From contig CAITUV010000008.1 in assembly GCA_903895725.1 (NCBI GenBank), forward strand, positions 67,502 to 131,501: a stretch of 64,000 nucleotides of DNA, given 5' to 3'. Under the pieces are notes generated by a model, which saw only the letters and a program-made list of their open reading frames with translations, ran no database searches and was not told where the DNA came from. This document shows positions 2,604-11,376 of this stretch, in pieces (within the stretch, counting starts at the first letter, position 1; each line of letters starts with the position of its first letter). Source of the DNA: an uncultured Myxococcales bacterium (GTDB lineage: Bacteria; Myxococcota_A; UBA9042; CAIXZC01). The position numbers and the translations under genes are program-made.

Positions 2604-4775
2604 TCACTGCAGCAGGATCAGCCCGTCGTGAACGATCACGGTGGGGGATCCGGGCAGCACTCGCTTGGGGATCTGGCCCAGGGGGGCGCTCGCCTGCACC
2701 TGCAAGACGAACCCCCCGTCCTGATGAATCGGCGTAGCGACCAGCAGATCCCAGCGAGACGCAAAGCCCGGACCGTACGGAGAGCGACCCAGGAGGTGGA
2801 AGTCGCCGCCAGTTGCCGCAACCGGCACGAGCTCGGCGCAGCCGTCCACATGGTCCAAAAGTGACTCGCCGTCCGGCGGCAGCCAGCGGGGTACTCCGTC
2901 GCTGCCGCGCACCATCAGCCCTCCCGGCCCGCCGACGTGAGGGCCGTCCAGGCTGTCATCGGGCACGGCAACCGTGCGCAGTTCGTTGCCGGCAGAGTCC
3001 AGGACCCGAATGCCCGCCTCTGCATCCAGAACATAGAGCGTCTGACCGGTCGCAGCGATCCCGGTGGGAGCCGCACCGCCCGGCAGGGGCAGGTCCGAGC
3101 GCGATGGCATCGCCGCACCAAGGTCCACGCCCCAGAGCACTCGTTCTTCGATGGCTGGAGCTGGATCCCCGAACGCTCGCTCTGCGGGCTCGGAGAGCAC
3201 ATACAGATGCTGGCCGCCAGCAGCAAGGTCGAGGATGGTTCCCGGACTGTCCACCACGAGAGGCGGGGCGTCCAGGAGTTGCCTGTCATGTATCTCGATT
3301 CGCGAATCGCCGACGATGCCCCAGTCCCCACCGGGACCTCCCGTTGCCGTGGCGATGCGCTGTCCAATCCACGCTGCCGGGGGAAAAGACTCGCCACAGT
3401 ACCCCCAATGCAGGGCCGAGACCGCAGTCGTCGCGCCGTCGTCGAGGTTGACGAGCCAGTCACCGTCCTCCGCATGCACGAGCATCTCGTCTCCTCCCGG
3501 CGACAGGACTCCGTCAACGGAGCGTAGCGGTGACTGCTCCGCTGCTGCCGGGCACGCGTGAACCGGCGACTGCGCGGCCGGCCACCGCTTGTCGGGAGCG
3601 TACCAGGGTGACACCACCCACACGGTGCCTTCCTCCTCAGGCAAGAGCCGCTCCAGGCAGGGGGGCTCGTTCTCCTGTTGCACCGCGTAGACTGCGAGGT
3701 CCTCGCTCTCCAGGTCGAGGGCGCTGCAAAGGTCTGCCTCACATACCTTGGCAAACCCCCCGACCACCGGAGCATCGAAGGGCACATTCTTGGGCGTCGC
3801 CCGCGCCGCAACCATGGCCGGTCCACCCGGGTCGGCCAGTTCGTACAACTGCGCCTCGCCCTCCAATGCGAGGAGCAGCCGTCCCTTGTGTAGCGCCAGG
3901 AACCCCTCCGCCAGGCACGGAAGCTCGCCGACCACAGCAGTGGGGTCGGGGGCCAGCAAGTCGTGCACGCGGGCGACGGCCTGTTCGTCTCCATCGGTGA
4001 CCATCTGGACAACAAGCCACCTGCCGTCCGTCGCCACGTGAGGAGTCCAGGCAGGCTGTCCGTCGGCGTGAGGCACGCAGACGACCTCAAGAGGGACCCC
4101 GGGGTTGGAGAAGTCCAGCAGCGATACCCCGCGTTCCGTGGACAGAACGAGCCGGCCGTCGGAGGCACCGACCAGCCGCAAGCGCGGCTCAGGCCCCCCG
4201 ATACCAGAAGGGGGCGGAGTCAACGCTGCCGCCCACCACGCTACAGGCGTCGGATTCACTGGGTCAGCGATTTCGACGACGCTGATCCCGCCCAGCGCGG
4301 CGTCCTGCACGAAGGCGGTGGTCCCGACGACAACCACAGCATGCGCCCGTCCCACTGCCACCCTGCCCAGCTCTGAGAGGGTCTCCGGCTGGCGCACCAC
4401 CAGGTTCGGATTCTCGACGGTGACGAGACCGCCCTCGCCACGGGCCACCGCACGAGGGAGGTTCTCGGGCAGCGGCATAGCGACGCCGAAACCTGAGAGA
4501 ATCGGCGGGGCCTGCACCAGGACTCCGGTGCCGCAGACTTCAAAACAGAGTCCCGCCCGATCGTCGCACGAATCTCCCGTCTGCTCGCACAGCGGAGTCA
4601 CGTGGGGGCCTGCCTGTCGGTTTGCCTGGAGTCCGCCTTCATCCTTCCCGAAGGCATCACTCCCCCCATCCCCGGCTGCGCTGACTCGGTTTCCGCACGC
4701 GATCAGCAGGCCGAGCAGGACCACGAACACATATCCGGCGATTCGGGCAAGGCAACCTCCGTTTCTCCTCTCCAT
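2604..4775 (-). CDS. Lipoprotein, probable beta-propeller (LVIVD-like repeats)
   Basis: Lipobox LIAC; 'GISVVEIADPVNP' and 'GVSLLDFSNPGVP' resemble LVIVD repeats. Confidence 0.55.
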   Translation of the reverse strand: MERRNGGCLARIAGYVFVVLLGLLIACGNRVSAAGDGGSDAFGKDEGGLQANRQAGPHVTPLCEQTGDSCDDRAGLCFEVCGTGVLVQAPPILSGFGVAMPLPENLPRAVARGEGGLVTVENPNLVVRQPETLSELGRVAVGRAHAVVVVGTTAFVQDAALGGISVVEIADPVNPTPVAWWAAALTPPPSGIGGPEPRLRLVGASDGRLVLSTERGVSLLDFSNPGVPLEVVCVPHADGQPAWTPHVATDGRWLVVQMVTDGDEQAVARVHDLLAPDPTAVVGELPCLAEGFLALHKGRLLLALEGEAQLYELADPGGPAMVAARATPKNVPFDAPVVGGFAKVCEADLCSALDLESEDLAVYAVQQENEPPCLERLLPEEEGTVWVVSPWYAPDKRWPAAQSPVHACPAAAEQSPLRSVDGVLSPGGDEMLVHAEDGDWLVNLDDGATTAVSALHWGYCGESFPPAAWIGQRIATATGGPGGDWGIVGDSRIEIHDRQLLDAPPLVVDSPGTILDLAAGGQHLYVLSEPAERAFGDPAPAIEERVLWGVDLGAAMPSRSDLPLPGGAAPTGIAATGQTLYVLDAEAGIRVLDSAGNELRTVAVPDDSLDGPHVGGPGGLMVRGSDGVPRWLPPDGESLLDHVDGCAELVPVAATGGDFHLLGRSPYGPGFASRWDLLVATPIHQDGGFVLQVQASAPLGQIPKRVLPGSPTVIVHDGLILLQ

Positions 4776-4793: not shown

Positions 4794-5723
4794 TCAGAAC
4801 GGGAACTCCTCTTCCCCGGGCAGCATGTCGTCGTAGAAGACGCGGTAGAACTGGCCGCCCCGGCCTACGCAAGCGCTCGGGTAGTAGGTCTCGCCGCTAA
4901 GGTTCGCCCGGAGGAAGTCCCGTACCTTGCCGGCCTCTCCTCCCTCCAGCGCCATGCTCCAGAACCCGTAGTCCTCGTTTCCGGGGAAGGCCGCAGAGTC
5001 GTCGAAGGGCCAAGCCACTGCGTTCGTCCCGTCGCAGTTCTCCGGCAGGCCCGGGCCCGTCGCCAGGTAGCCGCCGAAGAGGATGCGGTCGGTCTCCAGG
5101 ATCTCCCCAGGCAGCTCTTTCAACTCCAAGAGCGCGGCATGAAGCGCCACCAACTCCTCTGGCGGTGGCTTCTCCCAGTCCTGGTCCCGGTCCTCGCAAT
5201 CGGGCCAGCCGGAGAATGACGAAAAGCAGGAAGCCGTAACGGTCACCCCTGGCACCGCCACGTAGAGGCTCTCGGTCGGACCGTCCAGGGCGGGACATCG
5301 CTGGTACTCCCCGGCGTCATCCGGGCCGACCTTCGCCGCGAGCGCCAGCAACTGTTCGAAGGTCTCCTCTGGCACCTTTGCCTGCCGCAGGACGCGGTAG
5401 CCCAGCTCCGGGATGGTTCCCTGGTCCAGCCGGACGACGCGCCGGTCGCCCAAGACGTAGAGCCTGAAGTCCCCGTAGTGCTCGACGAAGAAGATCTGCT
5501 CGGGCGACATCAGGAATCCGCCGCCTCTCCCGGCCGCGAACACCAGAGCGTCGGGCTCCAGGTCGGCCGGATCGATGGTTGCGGTGTCGGCCGCGACGGC
5601 ATCATTGGGTGAGCGCTCCTCCGCCGTGCCGATGTCGCCCTTCTCCCGCGACCCGCCGCAGCCTGCGGCCAGCAGCACCATCACCGCCACGAGCCCCATT
5701 GTGCTCAAGTTCGTTCTTCGCAT
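4794..5723 (-). CDS. Hypothetical lipoprotein
   Basis: Start moved to MRRTNLSTM (RBS GAGGAGGG); lipobox LAAGC. Confidence 0.6.
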   Translation of the reverse strand: MRRTNLSTMGLVAVMVLLAAGCGGSREKGDIGTAEERSPNDAVAADTATIDPADLEPDALVFAAGRGGGFLMSPEQIFFVEHYGDFRLYVLGDRRVVRLDQGTIPELGYRVLRQAKVPEETFEQLLALAAKVGPDDAGEYQRCPALDGPTESLYVAVPGVTVTASCFSSFSGWPDCEDRDQDWEKPPPEELVALHAALLELKELPGEILETDRILFGGYLATGPGLPENCDGTNAVAWPFDDSAAFPGNEDYGFWSMALEGGEAGKVRDFLRANLSGETYYPSACVGRGGQFYRVFYDDMLPGEEEFPF

Positions 5724-5742
5724 CGCTCCCTCCTCGACAGGC

Positions 5743-8364
5743 TCATGGTACGCCGCACCAGGTGCACTCGAACAGGGTCTCGGAGGTGTGCTCACCTCCC
5801 GGCACCGTTGAGTATGGCGGTGCCGTCGAGATGTCCGTGACCGAACGGACAATCCCCGACCCCCGGGCAAACCACACGAAGTCGACGTGAACCCAATCGT
5901 CGTGCACCTCAACGACGGGATCCACTGCAAGGGCGGCGATCGCTTCCTCGTCGAAGCCGTTGTCTTCGCCCGGGGCGAAGTGCTTCATCTGGCCCTCCAT
6001 CCAGGCGACGAGCCCCTCGTGCGAGGGCAGGATGATCATGCCGCTGCAGCCGTGCCAGTCGCAGTAGAACTCCTGCCCCATCAATCGCAGAACCTGGAGT
6101 TGGAACCAGCCCTCCCGACTCCCGTCCACGAGCACGTGCTTCAGGAAACTCTCCGTCACGCAGGGATGCTCCGGGTCAGACTGGCAGAGCGGCGAGTCGG
6201 TCTTGCGGGCCACGAGCGTCGTCTCGCCACCCATGTCCCAGGCATAGAGGTAAGTGAAGTCCAGCGTCCACCCCTCCTCCGTGTGGAGTCGGTCGAGGAC
6301 CGTAAAGAACTCGTTTGGGTCGAACTCTTCGCCCGTCTTGTGCGGTGGGGGCTTCTCCTGAGCGAGGTTGTCCGGCAACTCCAGGTTCTCGTACAGCGCC
6401 CGGAACGCGTCCACGATACCCTGGCAGTAGGCGGCGAATTCCGGGTCGCCGGCCACGGTCTCTGCCGCGGCAGCGTCCTCCGTCCCCGTTCCATCCACGC
6501 TGTCCGCGGTGGCAGCGTCCTCCGTCCCCGTTGCATCTGCGACGGCATCCGTCCCGCCCGTTCCGTCTGCGACGTCGTTGCCCGCGTCGCACGCGATCAG
6601 GCCAAGCGCCAGCAGCACTACTGCGACCAGGCGCCGCTGCCGCACCAATGCGAACGCGAGCGATAGAGCGGCCAGCAGCGCGAGCGGACCCGATGCAGGT
6701 CCGTGAGTCGTCGCCGAGCACCCCGAACCTCCCCCGCCGTTGCCGTCAGGGGTTGCGGGTGCCGCGACGTCCTGGTCGGCCGCCGCCGGGGCATCCTCCT
6801 GCGCCACGCAGTCGCTGTGCCAGCTGGACCCGTCGTCAAGCGTGATCTGGGCCTCTCCGCATAGCAGCACCGGCTCCGAACGCGTGCCGGCCAGGTTGAT
6901 CGCCTGGACCTCCCTGCAGGTCTCTGTGGAGCGCCGGCCACACTCGACCTCGAGCCAGGGGGCGAGCGTCATGCATTGGGCGCCGCAGTCCGGCGTGCTC
7001 AGATAGTCGTCGGAGACCTTGTCCGCCTTTGTCCCCAGCACCGCGTAGAGTGCCGTCCCGGGGTCCGCTGCCAGATCGAATCTTTCGCAGAGGGACTGCC
7101 CCTGGTCGAAGCAGTCCTGGCTGAGAATCTGGTACTTGCAAAGCTCGGCAGGCAGCTCTGGTTGCTCCTCGTTGCCTTCGGACGGAATCCCCGTGATCCC
7201 GAGCAGCGTGGGCACGGCCGGTGCCGGGGCGGTGCCTGTGCCGAAAGTGAACGAGTACGGTCCGTAGTCGGTGCAAGGCTCGGGAACCTCGTCGAAGCAG
7301 ATCCGCACGGTGAACTCGCATGCGGCTCCCGGGGCCGGATCCGGCGGCGGGAAGCTGTACCACGAGAGACTCTCGCGCTGCGCCTCGAGCGCCACACCGC
7401 CCACGGTCACCTCGACCTGCGAGCCTATCCCCGCATTGACCCAAATTCGCGCGTCCACCGGTACGTCGGTCGCACCGTCGGCCGGCAGCACGAAGAGGTG
7501 CTGCGGTGGCTCCCACAGGCAGCTAGCCCGCGCCGCCGGTGCCATGCAGAGCGCCGCACCGCCGATCAGCAGCCCCGCGCGCGCTGCCGCAGGGCGGCGT
7601 CTCACGGCCGGCAGGAGCGCGAGGAGCGCCAGCACGAACAGGCCCCAGGTTGTGCTCTCCGTTGCCGCTCCCACGCCACAGCCGCCACTGGATGAGCCAG
7701 GCGTTGTGGAGGTCGGATCAGCCTCGGCGAGACCCGACTCCGAGGTCACGTCGGCAGTGGCACCGCCCCCTCCGCCACTGCAGCCGGCGACGGGATGGCC
7801 CCAGCCCTTGGGGGCGCAGACTCTGTCGAGGCAGCAGCCGCTGTTTTCAGCCAGACCGTTCTCGGGATTGTCGCACGTACCCGGGCGCCACCACGAGTGG
7901 TCGATGCACTCCCAGCCCCAGTCGCAGTCTTGGGACGTGTCGCAGAAGACCAGAAGCCCGGTCACACGGCACTTCCCCTTGTCACAAACCAACCCAGGTT
8001 CAGTGCAATCGGAATCCAACTGGCACTCCACCTTGGGCCTGTAGCAGAGCCTGATTCCGGTCTCCACCGGCCCCGAGTTCGGGCCGTCGCACTTGTGGCA
8101 GTAGCAGGGCATCTCCTCCCATCCCGGGCCGTTGTCCCAGTCGGGGCAGTGGCAGTTGTCCGAGCCCCACTCATAGAGACTCGGCCCGCACTCCTCCACG
8201 TAGTCGCCGCACAGGTCGTACTGCGGGCAGTCTGCGTCGGTGGCACACTTCGCTCGCCCCAAGAAGGACGGGGCCTCGGCCAACGCCGCTCCGCAAAAGA
8301 ACGCGGGGCAGGCAGCCGCCAGTCCCATCAAGCAGCTCACGACCAGGCGGTTCAGTCCTCGCAT
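5743..8364 (-). CDS. Cys-rich exported multidomain protein with two internal MYXO-CTERM-like motifs (possible polyprotein)
   Basis: Start MRGLNRL with RBS GGAGGA; N-terminal signal peptide; internal GGC..(TM)..RRR and GSGC..(TM)..RQRR motifs, each followed by a new signal-peptide-like segment. Confidence 0.65.
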   Translation of the reverse strand: MRGLNRLVVSCLMGLAAACPAFFCGAALAEAPSFLGRAKCATDADCPQYDLCGDYVEECGPSLYEWGSDNCHCPDWDNGPGWEEMPCYCHKCDGPNSGPVETGIRLCYRPKVECQLDSDCTEPGLVCDKGKCRVTGLLVFCDTSQDCDWGWECIDHSWWRPGTCDNPENGLAENSGCCLDRVCAPKGWGHPVAGCSGGGGGATADVTSESGLAEADPTSTTPGSSSGGCGVGAATESTTWGLFVLALLALLPAVRRRPAAARAGLLIGGAALCMAPAARASCLWEPPQHLFVLPADGATDVPVDARIWVNAGIGSQVEVTVGGVALEAQRESLSWYSFPPPDPAPGAACEFTVRICFDEVPEPCTDYGPYSFTFGTGTAPAPAVPTLLGITGIPSEGNEEQPELPAELCKYQILSQDCFDQGQSLCERFDLAADPGTALYAVLGTKADKVSDDYLSTPDCGAQCMTLAPWLEVECGRRSTETCREVQAINLAGTRSEPVLLCGEAQITLDDGSSWHSDCVAQEDAPAAADQDVAAPATPDGNGGGGSGCSATTHGPASGPLALLAALSLAFALVRQRRLVAVVLLALGLIACDAGNDVADGTGGTDAVADATGTEDAATADSVDGTGTEDAAAAETVAGDPEFAAYCQGIVDAFRALYENLELPDNLAQEKPPPHKTGEEFDPNEFFTVLDRLHTEEGWTLDFTYLYAWDMGGETTLVARKTDSPLCQSDPEHPCVTESFLKHVLVDGSREGWFQLQVLRLMGQEFYCDWHGCSGMIILPSHEGLVAWMEGQMKHFAPGEDNGFDEEAIAALAVDPVVEVHDDWVHVDFVWFARGSGIVRSVTDISTAPPYSTVPGGEHTSETLFECTWCGVP
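6469..6540. repeat. Coding tandem repeat (about 42-bp unit, acidic linker TGTEDAA)
   Basis: GGCAGCGTCCTCCGTCCCCGTT at 6469 and 6511, with a degenerate third copy after. Confidence 0.7.
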
Positions 8365-8384
8365 CGCTTCTTCCTCCGCTGCTC

Positions 8385-9257
8385 TCATGGTTCGCCCAGG
8401 ACAAACTGGCACTGCCCCTCAATGCACTTCGCCTCGCCGGGCGGGCACCCGGGCGTGGCCATGCATGGGGGAACACCGGCTGCGCAGAACGTCTCTGCGA
8501 GCGAGACAATGCCCGCCTCGAATGCGTCTGAGGACTCCGCACTGACGGCCATCGGGCACTCGACCAGGTGCACGCCCACCTCAGGACACTCCAACTCGGG
8601 AGTCACCAGTATGCAGTCCCCGTCGCCGGTGCAGGCGGTGAGCACTTCGAGTTGTCCCGTGACGGCCAAAGCGAAGTCGGAGGCCGTCTCCTCACACCCC
8701 AGTTGTGCTTCCACGCCGTCACGGCAGATAGGCGCGGACCATTCGATCACTGGGCACATGGGATCGCCGGGGACGCTCAGTGGGGCCTGTGCGCACTCGG
8801 GCCCGTCGTCCTCGTTGTTGCGCTCCACGCCTTGCCCGCAGGGAACCTCGCTGCTCGAATCGGCCGAGAAATCGGCGCAGTACGAGCAGCTCACCCAGCC
8901 ACAAGGGATGCAGTTCCCACCGTACATGCAGCAGACCGACATGTCCGGGGCGCAGGCCTTGACGATAGCAGTGCTCTGTCCTTCGGCACAGTAGAACTCA
9001 GGCGGGTCCCAGCAAGTGTCCCCCGGCTGTCGCTCGTCACCGGGATAGTGGATGTTCTGGCATCCACCATTCCGACGCGCCCGCACTTCCTCCTGAACAT
9101 CACTGGCAGTGTCGTCGTCCGCGGCCCTCACTTCTTGGCCGTCACCAGGGCCTTTGTCCGACGACTTCTCGTCACACGCTCCCAGCGCACTAGGCAACGC
9201 CGCCAACAGGACGATTCCGAGAACGCGAACCGCCATTGCACAAAGGGCCTGTTTCAT
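8385..9257 (-). CDS. Cys-rich hypothetical lipoprotein
   Basis: Lipobox LGAC; many Cys; RBS GGAGG. Confidence 0.6.
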   Translation of the reverse strand: MKQALCAMAVRVLGIVLLAALPSALGACDEKSSDKGPGDGQEVRAADDDTASDVQEEVRARRNGGCQNIHYPGDERQPGDTCWDPPEFYCAEGQSTAIVKACAPDMSVCCMYGGNCIPCGWVSCSYCADFSADSSSEVPCGQGVERNNEDDGPECAQAPLSVPGDPMCPVIEWSAPICRDGVEAQLGCEETASDFALAVTGQLEVLTACTGDGDCILVTPELECPEVGVHLVECPMAVSAESSDAFEAGIVSLAETFCAAGVPPCMATPGCPPGEAKCIEGQCQFVLGEP

Positions 9258-9621
9258 CGAAGCCTCCTTCCGGCGCGCACCTTCCCCTTGTCTACTACAG
9301 CAAGAATCGGGCCAGGAGGAAAGCCAGACAACTCGAACCGTGACCGCAGCGGGTCGCGTCGACGGAGCACGAGGTCCTTTCGGCCTCTCCCGAGGTCATG
9401 TTGTCCTCCAACTTCTCTGTAGTGTCTACCTATGCCATGTAAATATCCTGCTCACCGGAGTGGGAGGTGTTGCCTTTCTCTCCGCGACGCGTCCTCTCCG
9501 CAACAGCCGTGGTCGGAATCCTCCGTGCCGACAAGCGGCCCTTGCCCGATACGGCCCGGAGCGGCCATTGACAACCCCGCACCATCATTGCAGAATCTGT
9601 GGGGGGAAAAGGGAGACGGCC

Positions 9622-11376
9622 ATGAAAACAGCGAAGAACGAGTTGCTCGTCGGGCTGGCCTTGCTGGCGCTGGCGGCCTGTGGTGAATCAGCGTCACGCC
9701 AAGCAGTCCAGGCCACCGTCGAGATGGGTGCGGAAGGGGGGAACGTTTCCCTCGGTGCGATCTCCGTCGAGGTGCCCACGGGCACCTTCGGGACAGAGAC
9801 GACCCTCACCATCCGGTTCGCCGCGGAGCATCCCGAGGGGAACATCGGGCCCGCTTACGAGGTCGATGCCGGCGGGGCCGACCTGCTCGTACCGGCGACC
9901 ATCTCCTACAAGGTGGCCTCCGCCGACCTGCCCGAAGGCACAGCCCTGGCCGACGTGCGTCTCGCATTCGTGGCGGACGGCGCCTGGCAGCCGTTGTCGG
10001 CCTGCGATGTCGATGCCGCAACAGGCGTGGTGCGTTGCGAGACCACCCATTTCAGCATCTGGGGTGCGGTGCCGCCGCTGCCGCCGATTCCATGCTCCAC
10101 CGCGGCTGACTGCCCCGAGATGGAGTGCATGGTAGCGAGTTGCGACGGCGGCGGCTGTGCGTATGCGGCGGCCCCGGCCTGTCCGTGCACTCCCGACTGT
10201 GCCGGCAAGGAATGCGGCGACGACGGCTGCGGGGGCTCCTGCGGCGAATGCGACGACGGCTGTGGTCAAGCTGTATGCGAACTCGGCGAATGCCTCAGTC
10301 TCTGCCTCTGCAACTGCGAAGACAAGGAATGCGGCGAGGACGGCTGCGGCGGGACATGCGGCGAGTGCGCCAAGGGGTACGACTGCAGTGACGGGGTATG
10401 CACCTGCACTCCCTCGTGTGGAGGCAAGGAGTGCGGCGACGACGGCTGCGGTGCTGTGTGCGGCGAGTGCGCCCAGTACTACGCCTGCCAGGCCGGGCTC
10501 TGCGAGCCGGAGCCGGGGGGGCCGTTCTGGCCATGCGAACAGAACTCCGATTGCAGCAGCGGTTGGTGCATCGAGACCGACGAAGGGAACATGTGCACCG
10601 TCCTGTGTATCGAGGAGTGCCCGAACGGGTGGACCTGTCAGGCCGTCTCGGGCGGGGGGCCGGACCTGGTCTACCTGTGCCTGCCGCCGTTCTGCGAGCC
10701 AACCTGTGCCGGGAAGCAGTGCGGCAGCGACGGCTGCGGTGGAAGCTGCGGCGAGTGCGCAGTGGGGCTCTCGTGCAACGCCGGGGTCTGCGTGGCCGGT
10801 CAGAGCTGCAACGTCTGGGACTACGTCACGCCGGAGGAACTGGATGCGGTCGGCCAGTGCAGCATGGCCCTGTGGGAGGGCATCTGGTCTGAGCCGGTCT
10901 TCCCGGCGCTGTTAGGAGAGGGGCACTTGTTCAAGGAGGATCTGGAGATCGACGGAGAGTTCTTCCTCGTGGAAACCACAGTGGACCAGACTGCGATCAC
11001 GCTCACAGTTCCATGCGTAGCGACCGGTCTCAAGATCGTGGTGTGGTCGGACGACGGACTCAGCAGCCTCGATGCCGGAGATCCTCATCCGTTGGCCGAC
11101 CCGGCGTGTCTGTCGAACGGGAGTTGCGACTGCGAGATCTGCGTATTCGCTCAGGCATCTCTTGAGGGAAAGCCCATGTTGAACGCGATTGCGGGCACCG
11201 TCATGCTGGGTTGCGGTCCCAAGAGCTGCGACTGCGGCATCATGTCATACAGCCTGCGCCTCGCCGACCTAACCTTCGCCGACATCGCGGGAGAGAAGCA
11301 GTTTGTCAATGTTCACTCGGACGGCCCGGACTGGCTGCCGAAGGACGAGTGGATCGAGGCCGTATCCTCGAAGTAG
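9622..11376 (+). CDS. Lipoprotein with ZU5-like domain and Cys-rich repeats
   Basis: Start MKTAKNE, lipobox LAAC; ZU5-like 'GAEGG..SVEVP.G...TTHFS'; four C..K(E/Q)CG.DGCG..CGEC repeats. Confidence 0.65.
   Translation: MKTAKNELLVGLALLALAACGESASRQAVQATVEMGAEGGNVSLGAISVEVPTGTFGTETTLTIRFAAEHPEGNIGPAYEVDAGGADLLVPATISYKVASADLPEGTALADVRLAFVADGAWQPLSACDVDAATGVVRCETTHFSIWGAVPPLPPIPCSTAADCPEMECMVASCDGGGCAYAAAPACPCTPDCAGKECGDDGCGGSCGECDDGCGQAVCELGECLSLCLCNCEDKECGEDGCGGTCGECAKGYDCSDGVCTCTPSCGGKECGDDGCGAVCGECAQYYACQAGLCEPEPGGPFWPCEQNSDCSSGWCIETDEGNMCTVLCIEECPNGWTCQAVSGGGPDLVYLCLPPFCEPTCAGKQCGSDGCGGSCGECAVGLSCNAGVCVAGQSCNVWDYVTPEELDAVGQCSMALWEGIWSEPVFPALLGEGHLFKEDLEIDGEFFLVETTVDQTAITLTVPCVATGLKIVVWSDDGLSSLDAGDPHPLADPACLSNGSCDCEICVFAQASLEGKPMLNAIAGTVMLGCGPKSCDCGIMSYSLRLADLTFADIAGEKQFVNVHSDGPDWLPKDEWIEAVSSK

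Follow-up and report, generated by a model that had tools for sequence, protein, structure and literature searches.

In a 64,000-nucleotide stretch of DNA from an uncultured Myxococcales bacterium (contig CAITUV010000008.1 of assembly GCA_903895725.1, positions 67,502 to 131,501; the whole stretch is called the window), one open reading frame (ORF) on the minus strand is a genuine fusion, in frame, of three adjacent genes that each encode an exported envelope protein. We hold, with moderate confidence, that it is made as one precursor of 873 amino acids (aa) and is then cut by membrane enzymes. It can be seen that the ORF reads, in order, signal peptide, module D1, MYXO-CTERM tag, signal peptide, module D2, MYXO-CTERM tag, lipoprotein signal and module D3. 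Each internal tag and the signal behind it together form what is called here a joint, or hairpin. The evidence lies in the sequence of the two joints, in free and fused relatives of the modules, and in the recurrence of such joints in this and other genomes.

Two internal joints in one reading frame

The stop-free frame occupies window positions 5743..8412. The ATG at 8364 is its likely start, which gives 873 codons at 5743-8364 and agrees with the gene call in the database (P0008, 873 aa); a GGAGG Shine-Dalgarno motif lies 8 nucleotides (nt) upstream of it (8373..8377). Residue numbers below are those of the 873-aa protein, and an alignment of 10 sequences (A1) carries an 889-aa numbering. 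Residues 1-29 (8278..8364) read as a Sec signal peptide ending in A-L-A before E, and the same layout is found in the orthologue from G004, a genome of another genus in the same family. The Cys-rich module D1, about 200 aa long, extends up to the tag residue Cys229 (7678..8277). Tag 1 (7594..7689) consists of a G-C motif, a hydrophobic helix and RRR. Internal signal peptide 1 (7525..7593) comes next; it opens with the loop that follows RRR, continues as a hydrophobic stretch and closes with A-R-A before S-C. Module D2 (6718..7524; about 270 aa) runs from S-C-L-W to Cys549 of the second tag. Tag 2 (6631..6735) again has a G-C motif and a helix, here closed by RQRR. Behind it stands the internal lipoprotein signal (6589..6630), with 13 hydrophobic residues and the lipobox L-I-A-C (Cys592). 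Module D3 with the stop codon fills 5743..6591; it begins with the Cys of the lipobox, continues through a linker of some 45 aa that is acidic and of low complexity, and ends in a globular domain of about 235 aa.

Both tags are tripartite, with a signature that contains the invariant Cys, a hydrophobic helix and a short Arg cluster. The genome was searched in six frames with the NCBIfam MYXO-CTERM model TIGR03901, whose curated cut-off is 20 bits, and each tag exceeded it individually (23.2 bits at 7594-7689 and 22.9 bits at 6631-6735). The whole protein scored 21.1 bits in two stretches, and none of 14 control genomes gave a match above the cut-off in the same search. Within tag 2, G564 is invariant and C565 nearly so (at least 90%) in alignment A1. 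At joint 1 the +1 frame contains a TGA, which was considered as a hidden end of D1; this was rejected, since the tag, RRR included, is read in frame 0 and its match to the model extends to position 32 of 34.

The signals between the modules conform to established patterns in everything except their place in the chain. Internal signal 1 shows the basic region, hydrophobic region and small residues at −3 and −1 (A-R-A) of a Sec signal cut by signal peptidase I. At joint 2, RQRR, 13 residues and L-I-A-C agree with a lipobox of the form [LVI][ASTVI][GAS]C behind a basic and a short hydrophobic region. A MYXO-CTERM tag is expected at the C-terminus and a lipoprotein signal at the N-terminus, but 616 and 295 codons remain behind tags 1 and 2 respectively, and the lipobox Cys is residue 592 of 873. 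The second hydrophobic arms, of about 16 residues at joint 1 and 13 at joint 2, have the length of signal peptides and are short for stable membrane spans. The sequence-only reading, from which this work started, had proposed that each basic cluster ends one anchor and begins the next signal. The motifs that it quoted were all found, in the order it gave, within the one ORF at 5743-8364. The curated MYXO-CTERM model, which it had advised running, places both tags over the cut-off, and at joint 2 the four residues RQRR are indeed all that parts the two hydrophobic arms.

The source genome is assembled from metagenomic reads and consists of 88 contigs. In two sequencing runs, X1 and X2, Logan contigs cover 5700-8480 without a single difference or gap. 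As both runs may be source samples, this match rules out a slip in assembly and is not independent support. Neither stop codons nor frameshifts, which the sequence-only reading had named as evidence that would speak against a chain, are hidden at the joints in these contigs. In addition, the third-position GC content is 0.80-0.86 on both sides of both joints. A further run, X3, aligned only with part of D3 and the ends of the ORF and with many differences, which means that its sequence is that of a relative. The 3' part of D3 (window 5709-6252) is matched by one marine-metagenome contig of X3 over roughly 540 bases, among which there are 39 differences and 2 gaps, so that close relatives of D3 exist outside lake samples. 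Run X7 gave only short stray matches to the locus.

With no stop codon at either joint, ribosomes translating D1 run on into D2 and D3. A motif of the GGAGG type lies 5-8 nt upstream in all four genuine starts compared (the polyprotein ORF, the gene before it, the gene after it and a paralogue described below), and no Shine-Dalgarno motif is present in at least 40 nt upstream of either joint of the 873-aa ORF. At joint 1 a GTG directly precedes RRR, and at joint 2 the codons TTG-GTG precede RQRR. In the corresponding joints of the paralogue and of G004, there is no ATG, GTG or TTG between the tag helix and the lipobox, so D3 would there be made only by read-through. Translation as one 873-aa precursor is therefore well supported, and in this respect the single translation product assumed earlier is borne out by reasoning from the joints.

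Free and fused relatives, and recurrence of the joint

Homologues were sought in 41 genomes, namely the source genome and 40 relatives, of which 12 gave matches, and in protein databases. Internal signal 1 can be aligned column by column with the signal peptides at the N-termini of the seven other D2 homologues (7/7), and all seven of these signals end in [A/T]-x-A before [S/W/V]-C. At the other end of this module, the D2-type frame stops 32-47 residues past the G-C motif in 5 of 8 homologues. Six stand-alone D2-type proteins fetched from the database likewise begin with a signal and end with the tag. Four stand-alone D1-type homologues have a signal of their own and a tag-like C-terminus. The internal lipoprotein signal aligns with the N-terminal lipoprotein signals of 7/7 database homologues of D3 and of a stand-alone copy in genome G007, and one stand-alone D3 protein (P0001) is 81% identical to the D3 of the 873-aa ORF. 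The whole ORF matches 539 representatives at E≤0.001; among the best 150 of these most are stand-alone D3-type proteins of 230-330 aa, and tag-joined fusions number only 3. The joints thus match genuine C-terminal tags and genuine N-terminal signals, and each module exists both free and fused. The stand-alone homologues whose existence the sequence-only reading had left to be searched for were accordingly found for D1, D2 and D3 alike.

Fused relatives retain the frame across the joint and differ in the modules that they join. A paralogue on contig C46 of the same genome (73% identity over residues 269-889 in the 889-aa numbering) starts from an ATG and a signal peptide of its own and continues in one frame through D2, tag, lipobox and D3, with a 2-codon insertion or deletion in the loop. 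The ORF in G004 (564 aa) reads D1, tag, lipobox and D3 without D2, and downstream of it stand homologues of the two lipoprotein genes that come after the 873-aa ORF in the window. In G001, a genome of the same genus, D2, the tag and the lipobox are followed by 45 further residues. The metagenome protein P0009 (649 aa) carries D2, tag and lipobox and then a homologue of D4, the product of the next gene in the window, in place of D3, which indicates that the module after the joint is interchangeable. A different D2-like module is joined to D3 through tag and lipobox in P0012 (651 aa). The combinations seen are therefore D1-D2-D3, D2-D3, D1-D3 and D2-D4. All seven fused joints read in this polyprotein family (7/7) retain the G-C motif together with the Cys or A-x-A of the cleavage site, an argument that these signals remain in use rather than being fossils. 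Together with the alignment of the internal signals and tags to stand-alone termini, these in-frame relatives uphold the earlier proposal that three exported units are fused through tag-plus-signal hairpins. In one further D3 homologue, P0002 (374 aa), a D2-type signal runs directly into the lipobox segment of D3; it looks like a case in which D2 was deleted by recombination between the two hydrophobic segments.

The hairpin between D2 and D3 was compared codon by codon with that of the paralogue. Over 47 codons, 21 are identical, 12 differ synonymously only and 14 change the amino acid, besides the in-frame 2-codon indel. The ratio of nonsynonymous to synonymous divergence (dN/dS) is 0.37 for the hairpin, as compared with 0.31 for D2 and 0.26 for D3, at a synonymous divergence (dS) of about 0.5-0.9. 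By this measure the hairpin is under purifying selection, and the joint has been kept open and constrained since the duplication.

To see how general such joints are, the source genome was scanned with a tag profile built from 32 terminal tags, with a loose pattern search and with the curated model TIGR03901. It contains 27 tags of at least 20 bits, of which 6 have more than 60 codons before the next stop. A signal-like segment comes next in 5 of these 6, namely the two tags of the 873-aa ORF, that of the paralogue, and a single tag on each of contigs C48 and C58; the sixth runs on into an R-I-G repeat. Pooling the hits of the pattern search with those of the tag profile yielded 18 candidate joints distributed over 16 frames, a count that is approximate because those on C21 and C51 are ambiguous; for that reason these two were not counted as polyprotein joints. 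Third-position GC at the 18 joints is 0.71-0.87 upstream and 0.76-0.90 downstream, and such high values on both sides indicate that both are coding in the same frame. A start codon preceded by a Shine-Dalgarno-like motif occurs in the loop of only 2 of the 18. At a looser threshold TIGR03901 detected one more lipobox joint, on C67. Two other candidates were likewise not counted as polyprotein joints: the one at C63:35772, where the tail has only 64 codons, and the one at C43:45544, where an R-I-G repeat lies behind the tag. At this last place (C43:45544-45648) the tag scores 21.1 bits, and the in-frame R-I-G tripeptide repeat behind it continues for about 230 codons. Among the 16 frames, a second three-unit chain was observed on the minus strand of C58, in a frame of 2112 codons with two internal tags, each followed by a signal of the signal-peptidase-I type; one of these tags scores 23.6 bits with TIGR03901.

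The tally was extended to five genomes by applying the curated-model test to the tags listed at E≤0.01 in four others. An internal tag with a following signal was found for 5 of 27 tags in the source genome, 3 of 21 in G001 of the same genus, 4 of 30 examined (34 listed) in G004 of the same family, and, in two genomes of other families, 3 of 30 (G018) and 1 of 12 (G022). Taken together, 16 of 120 listed tags, about one in eight, are internal with a signal-like segment next. A scan for internal hairpins had been suggested for Myxococcota; in these five genomes the arrangement recurs. In G004 the ORF just upstream of the D1-D3 fusion (L027, C238:865-963) also has an internal tag and a lipobox, with 358 more codons behind them, and so two polyprotein genes adjoin there.

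Such fusions can be old and stably inherited, since two other fused ORFs of the source genome are collinear across their joints with those of G004 (52% over 644 columns and 40% over 608 columns). As to their origin, some loops retain traces of what they may have been. The joint loop in G001 is the in-frame translation of an apparent former ribosome-binding region (GGGAGGAGG...GGGAGGAA), with CTG at the place of the start codon. In one joint on C7, Arg-Arg-Arg-Glu-Glu before an ATG is encoded by AGG, AGA and GAG codons that form a Shine-Dalgarno-like run. The tight packing of the genes in this cluster and these loop sequences make loss of a stop codon, or a small deletion between co-oriented and tightly packed neighbours, the likely route. 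A purine-rich ribosome-binding sequence read in frame would give Arg/Gly-rich loops, which would be suited to the cytoplasmic side of the membrane.

Module families and gene neighbourhood

A search of Pfam with the whole ORF, with each module and with the three neighbouring genes gave nothing above the gathering threshold, and no OmpA or beta-barrel family was found in any module. D2 resembles the immunoglobulin-like family Big_5 in a protein atlas (score 0.86), which is below the trust level and serves as a lead only. D3 belongs to a large unnamed family that is spread beyond Myxococcota, and the atlas shows only unnamed clusters for it. The AlphaFold model of D3 is an alpha/beta domain with a predicted local distance difference test score (pLDDT) of 92.5 when computed from an alignment of 102 sequences (57.1 with 11 sequences). 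Comparison of this model with solved folds gave no match (Foldseek best E 0.03; VIA-align wide Z≤4.3). Weak NTF2/cystatin-like rows were returned by VIA over the C-terminal half of the model, and no fold was assigned.

The genes of the cluster are tightly packed on the minus strand. The ATG of the next gene, which encodes module D4, a lipoprotein of 309 aa with its own GAGGAGGGAG motif (4794..5723), is 19 nt past the stop codon of the polyprotein. It is followed by a gene for a lipoprotein of 723 aa (2604..4775), and this gene order is kept in G004. Upstream, a gene in the same operon encodes a Cys-rich lipoprotein of 290 aa (8385..9257). A divergent ORF on the plus strand (9109-11376) encodes an apparent lipoprotein with several copies of the Cys-rich motif C-G-x-D-G-C-G-G-x-C-G-E-C. 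Past the lipoprotein cluster, from about 12000 to 62000, the window has a different gene content, with ORFs that lack export signals and with a more variable composition.

Predicted processing and comparison with known systems

The mechanism that we consider most likely is processing that yields two proteins anchored by their tags and one lipoprotein; the topology and every cleavage described here are predicted from established rules. The N-terminal signal would take D1 through Sec. The helix of the first MYXO-CTERM tag would then act as a stop-transfer sequence, its Arg cluster remaining in the cytoplasm, and the next hydrophobic segment would re-engage the translocon as a signal peptide so that D2 is exported in turn. 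At the second joint the same stop-transfer and re-engagement would be repeated for D3. Signal peptidase I would cut after A-R-A, while Lgt would lipidate and LspA would cut at the L-I-A-C lipobox. The myxosortase pathway would place a lipid on the Cys of each tag and cut behind it. On this scheme D1 and D2 would both end in a lipid anchor at the C-terminus and go to the cell surface, and D3 would become a normal lipoprotein acylated at its N-terminus. The two hairpins would remain as waste peptides of some 51 and 42 aa.

The genome encodes the enzymes that these steps call for. A myxosortase of the MrtP type is present on contig C86 (L061:214-1830), with 287.7 bits against NF040674 (cut-off 250) and 134.6 bits for Mrt_core (cut-off 100). 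Signal peptidase I (123.8 bits, cut-off 47), LspA (84.2 bits, cut-off 73.95) and Lgt (154.5 bits, cut-off 118.9) are also encoded, the last together with four weaker paralogues. An Lgt-like transferase has been proposed to lipidate the Cys of MYXO-CTERM, which makes the Lgt paralogues of this genome candidates for that role. At C36:43698-45880, two Lgt-like frames (107.5 and 54 bits) come immediately after the single lspA match and have its orientation.

Several observations weigh against the three-protein precursor or against parts of it. The S-C behind A-x-A is conserved, and two of the eight homologues (L-A-S-C and I-A-V-C) could be taken to have a lipobox there, so that the type of processing at the N-terminus of D2 is uncertain. 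The GTG before each basic cluster makes some internal initiation possible. A free D3 that is 81% identical, and P0002 without D2, indicate that the fused state is labile and not needed for function. The repetition of the same design at two joints had been taken as an argument against accidental fusion; in view of the free D3 this argument is weakened. The fusions may be advantageous, through co-delivery of the products at 1:1:1, or may simply be tolerated. The cleavages themselves are deduced, and internal tags with hundreds of residues behind them lie outside the tested substrate range of myxosortases. The fusion could then be translated while its tags and signals are fossils, leaving an inner-membrane protein that passes the membrane four times and bears three periplasmic domains, or one that is cut in part. 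Passing out, in and out twice with the Arg loops inside is a valid polytopic topology by a reading of the sequence. We consider this outcome unlikely, because G-C motifs, lipobox Cys and A-x-A are preserved in every fused joint read (7/7), the dN/dS of the hairpin is 0.37, second arms of 13 and about 16 residues are short for stable spans, and the same segments serve as terminal signals in stand-alone homologues.

Production of the units mainly as separate proteins, through internal initiation at the GTG codons with the read-through chain as a minor by-product, seems quite improbable. Starts at the GTG before RRR and at the TTG-GTG before RQRR would each yield a textbook signal-peptide N-terminus. 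However, neither GTG has a Shine-Dalgarno-like motif within 40 nt, in contrast to the four genuine starts; the joints of the paralogue and of G004 have no ATG, GTG or TTG to offer; every ribosome on D1 enters D2 for want of a stop codon; and a motif-preceded start in the loop is confined to 2 of the 18 joints of the genome. An artefact of assembly or binning, or a recent pseudogene that has lost its stop codons, is the least probable explanation and is largely refuted. It could draw on the fragmentation of the metagenome-assembled genome into 88 contigs and on the chance that the two confirming runs are its own source. Yet the same joints occur in the paralogue, in other assemblies and in metagenome proteins, third-position GC stays at 0.80-0.86 on both sides of both joints, and purifying selection is seen throughout, with no frameshifts. 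The precursor that is cut into three exported proteins thus remains the preferred reading.

Our search found one printed mention of an internal MYXO-CTERM tag, in MXAN_5598 of Myxococcus xanthus, which was interpreted as a probable fusion of two genes with a proposed processing of its N-terminal part (Guo, Haft & Wall, mBio 2025, PMC11980579). In the passages of that paper that concern them, internal tags are called rare, and the model for MYXO-CTERM proteins is export through Sec, anchoring by the tag helix and cleavage behind it by myxosortase. The same passages report that MrtX still processes TraA when a FLAG epitope is attached C-terminally, behind the tag, which means that processing does not depend on a free native C-terminus. 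As far as those passages describe it, MXAN_5598 resembles the 873-aa protein in carrying the tag in the middle of the ORF, and differs in having one joint, which connects a large adhesin to an outer-membrane part of the beta-barrel/OmpA kind. The 873-aa ORF has two joints and no OmpA or beta-barrel family; behind its joints come another tagged protein and then a lipoprotein whose lipobox is explicit, its modules recur in other combinations, and in its lineage about one tag in eight (16 of 120) is internal. Set beside canonical proteins of the TraA type, as that source presents them, it shares the G-C signature, the helix, the Arg cluster, scores above the TIGR03901 cut-off and an encoded myxosortase of the MrtP type, and it differs in that its tags are not C-terminal. 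In relation to the parts of PMC11980579 considered here, what is new is the chain of three units with two joints, the three processing routes and the re-assorting modules, the single-joint internal tag being already in print. A preprint of Haft on myxosortases (10.1101/2023.06.07.544157) has no mention of internal tags, fusions or polyproteins. Our literature search gave no relevant bacterial paper on polyproteins with internal signal peptides or lipoboxes.

Looser parallels exist elsewhere, and for internal tags PMC11980579 itself cites studies of LPXTG and of an archaeosortase substrate. Abdul Halim and colleagues are said to have described in 2017 a Tat substrate of Haloferax volcanii in which the tripartite ArtA signal is at an internal position; this case differs from the 873-aa ORF in enzyme family and in domain of life. 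In the FbcH cytochrome b/c1 precursor of Bradyrhizobium and in viral glycoprotein polyproteins, one product is cut by signal peptidase, that of the host in the viral case, at an internal signal. These precursors, as they are generally known, do not pair a lipid-anchor sorting tag with the next signal, nor do they involve three different processing enzymes.

C-terminal tags are defined as terminal and signal peptides as N-terminal, whereas here both work, or persist under selection, in mid-chain, back to back and twice. If the precursor is cut as predicted, bacteria can make secreted polyproteins with nothing but housekeeping envelope enzymes, and these proteins would be natural substrates for asking whether myxosortase and the Cys-lipidating enzyme need a free C-terminus and whether Lgt and LspA accept an internal lipobox. 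ORFs of this kind are annotated as single hypothetical proteins with one signal peptide, and so their mature products and locations are mis-predicted; with 16 of 120 tags internal in five genomes, the effect on predicted surface proteomes is not small. We also put forward, tentatively and as a possibility that is still doubtful, that a tag and the next signal form a general heritable joint with which this myxobacterial lineage builds, shuffles and cuts secreted polyproteins, whose two or three modules would re-assort by recombination within the hairpins and would be released by three proteases in a ratio of 1:1 or 1:1:1. If that were true, these proteins would be a bacterial counterpart of viral envelope polyproteins and would provide a natural panel of myxosortase substrates.

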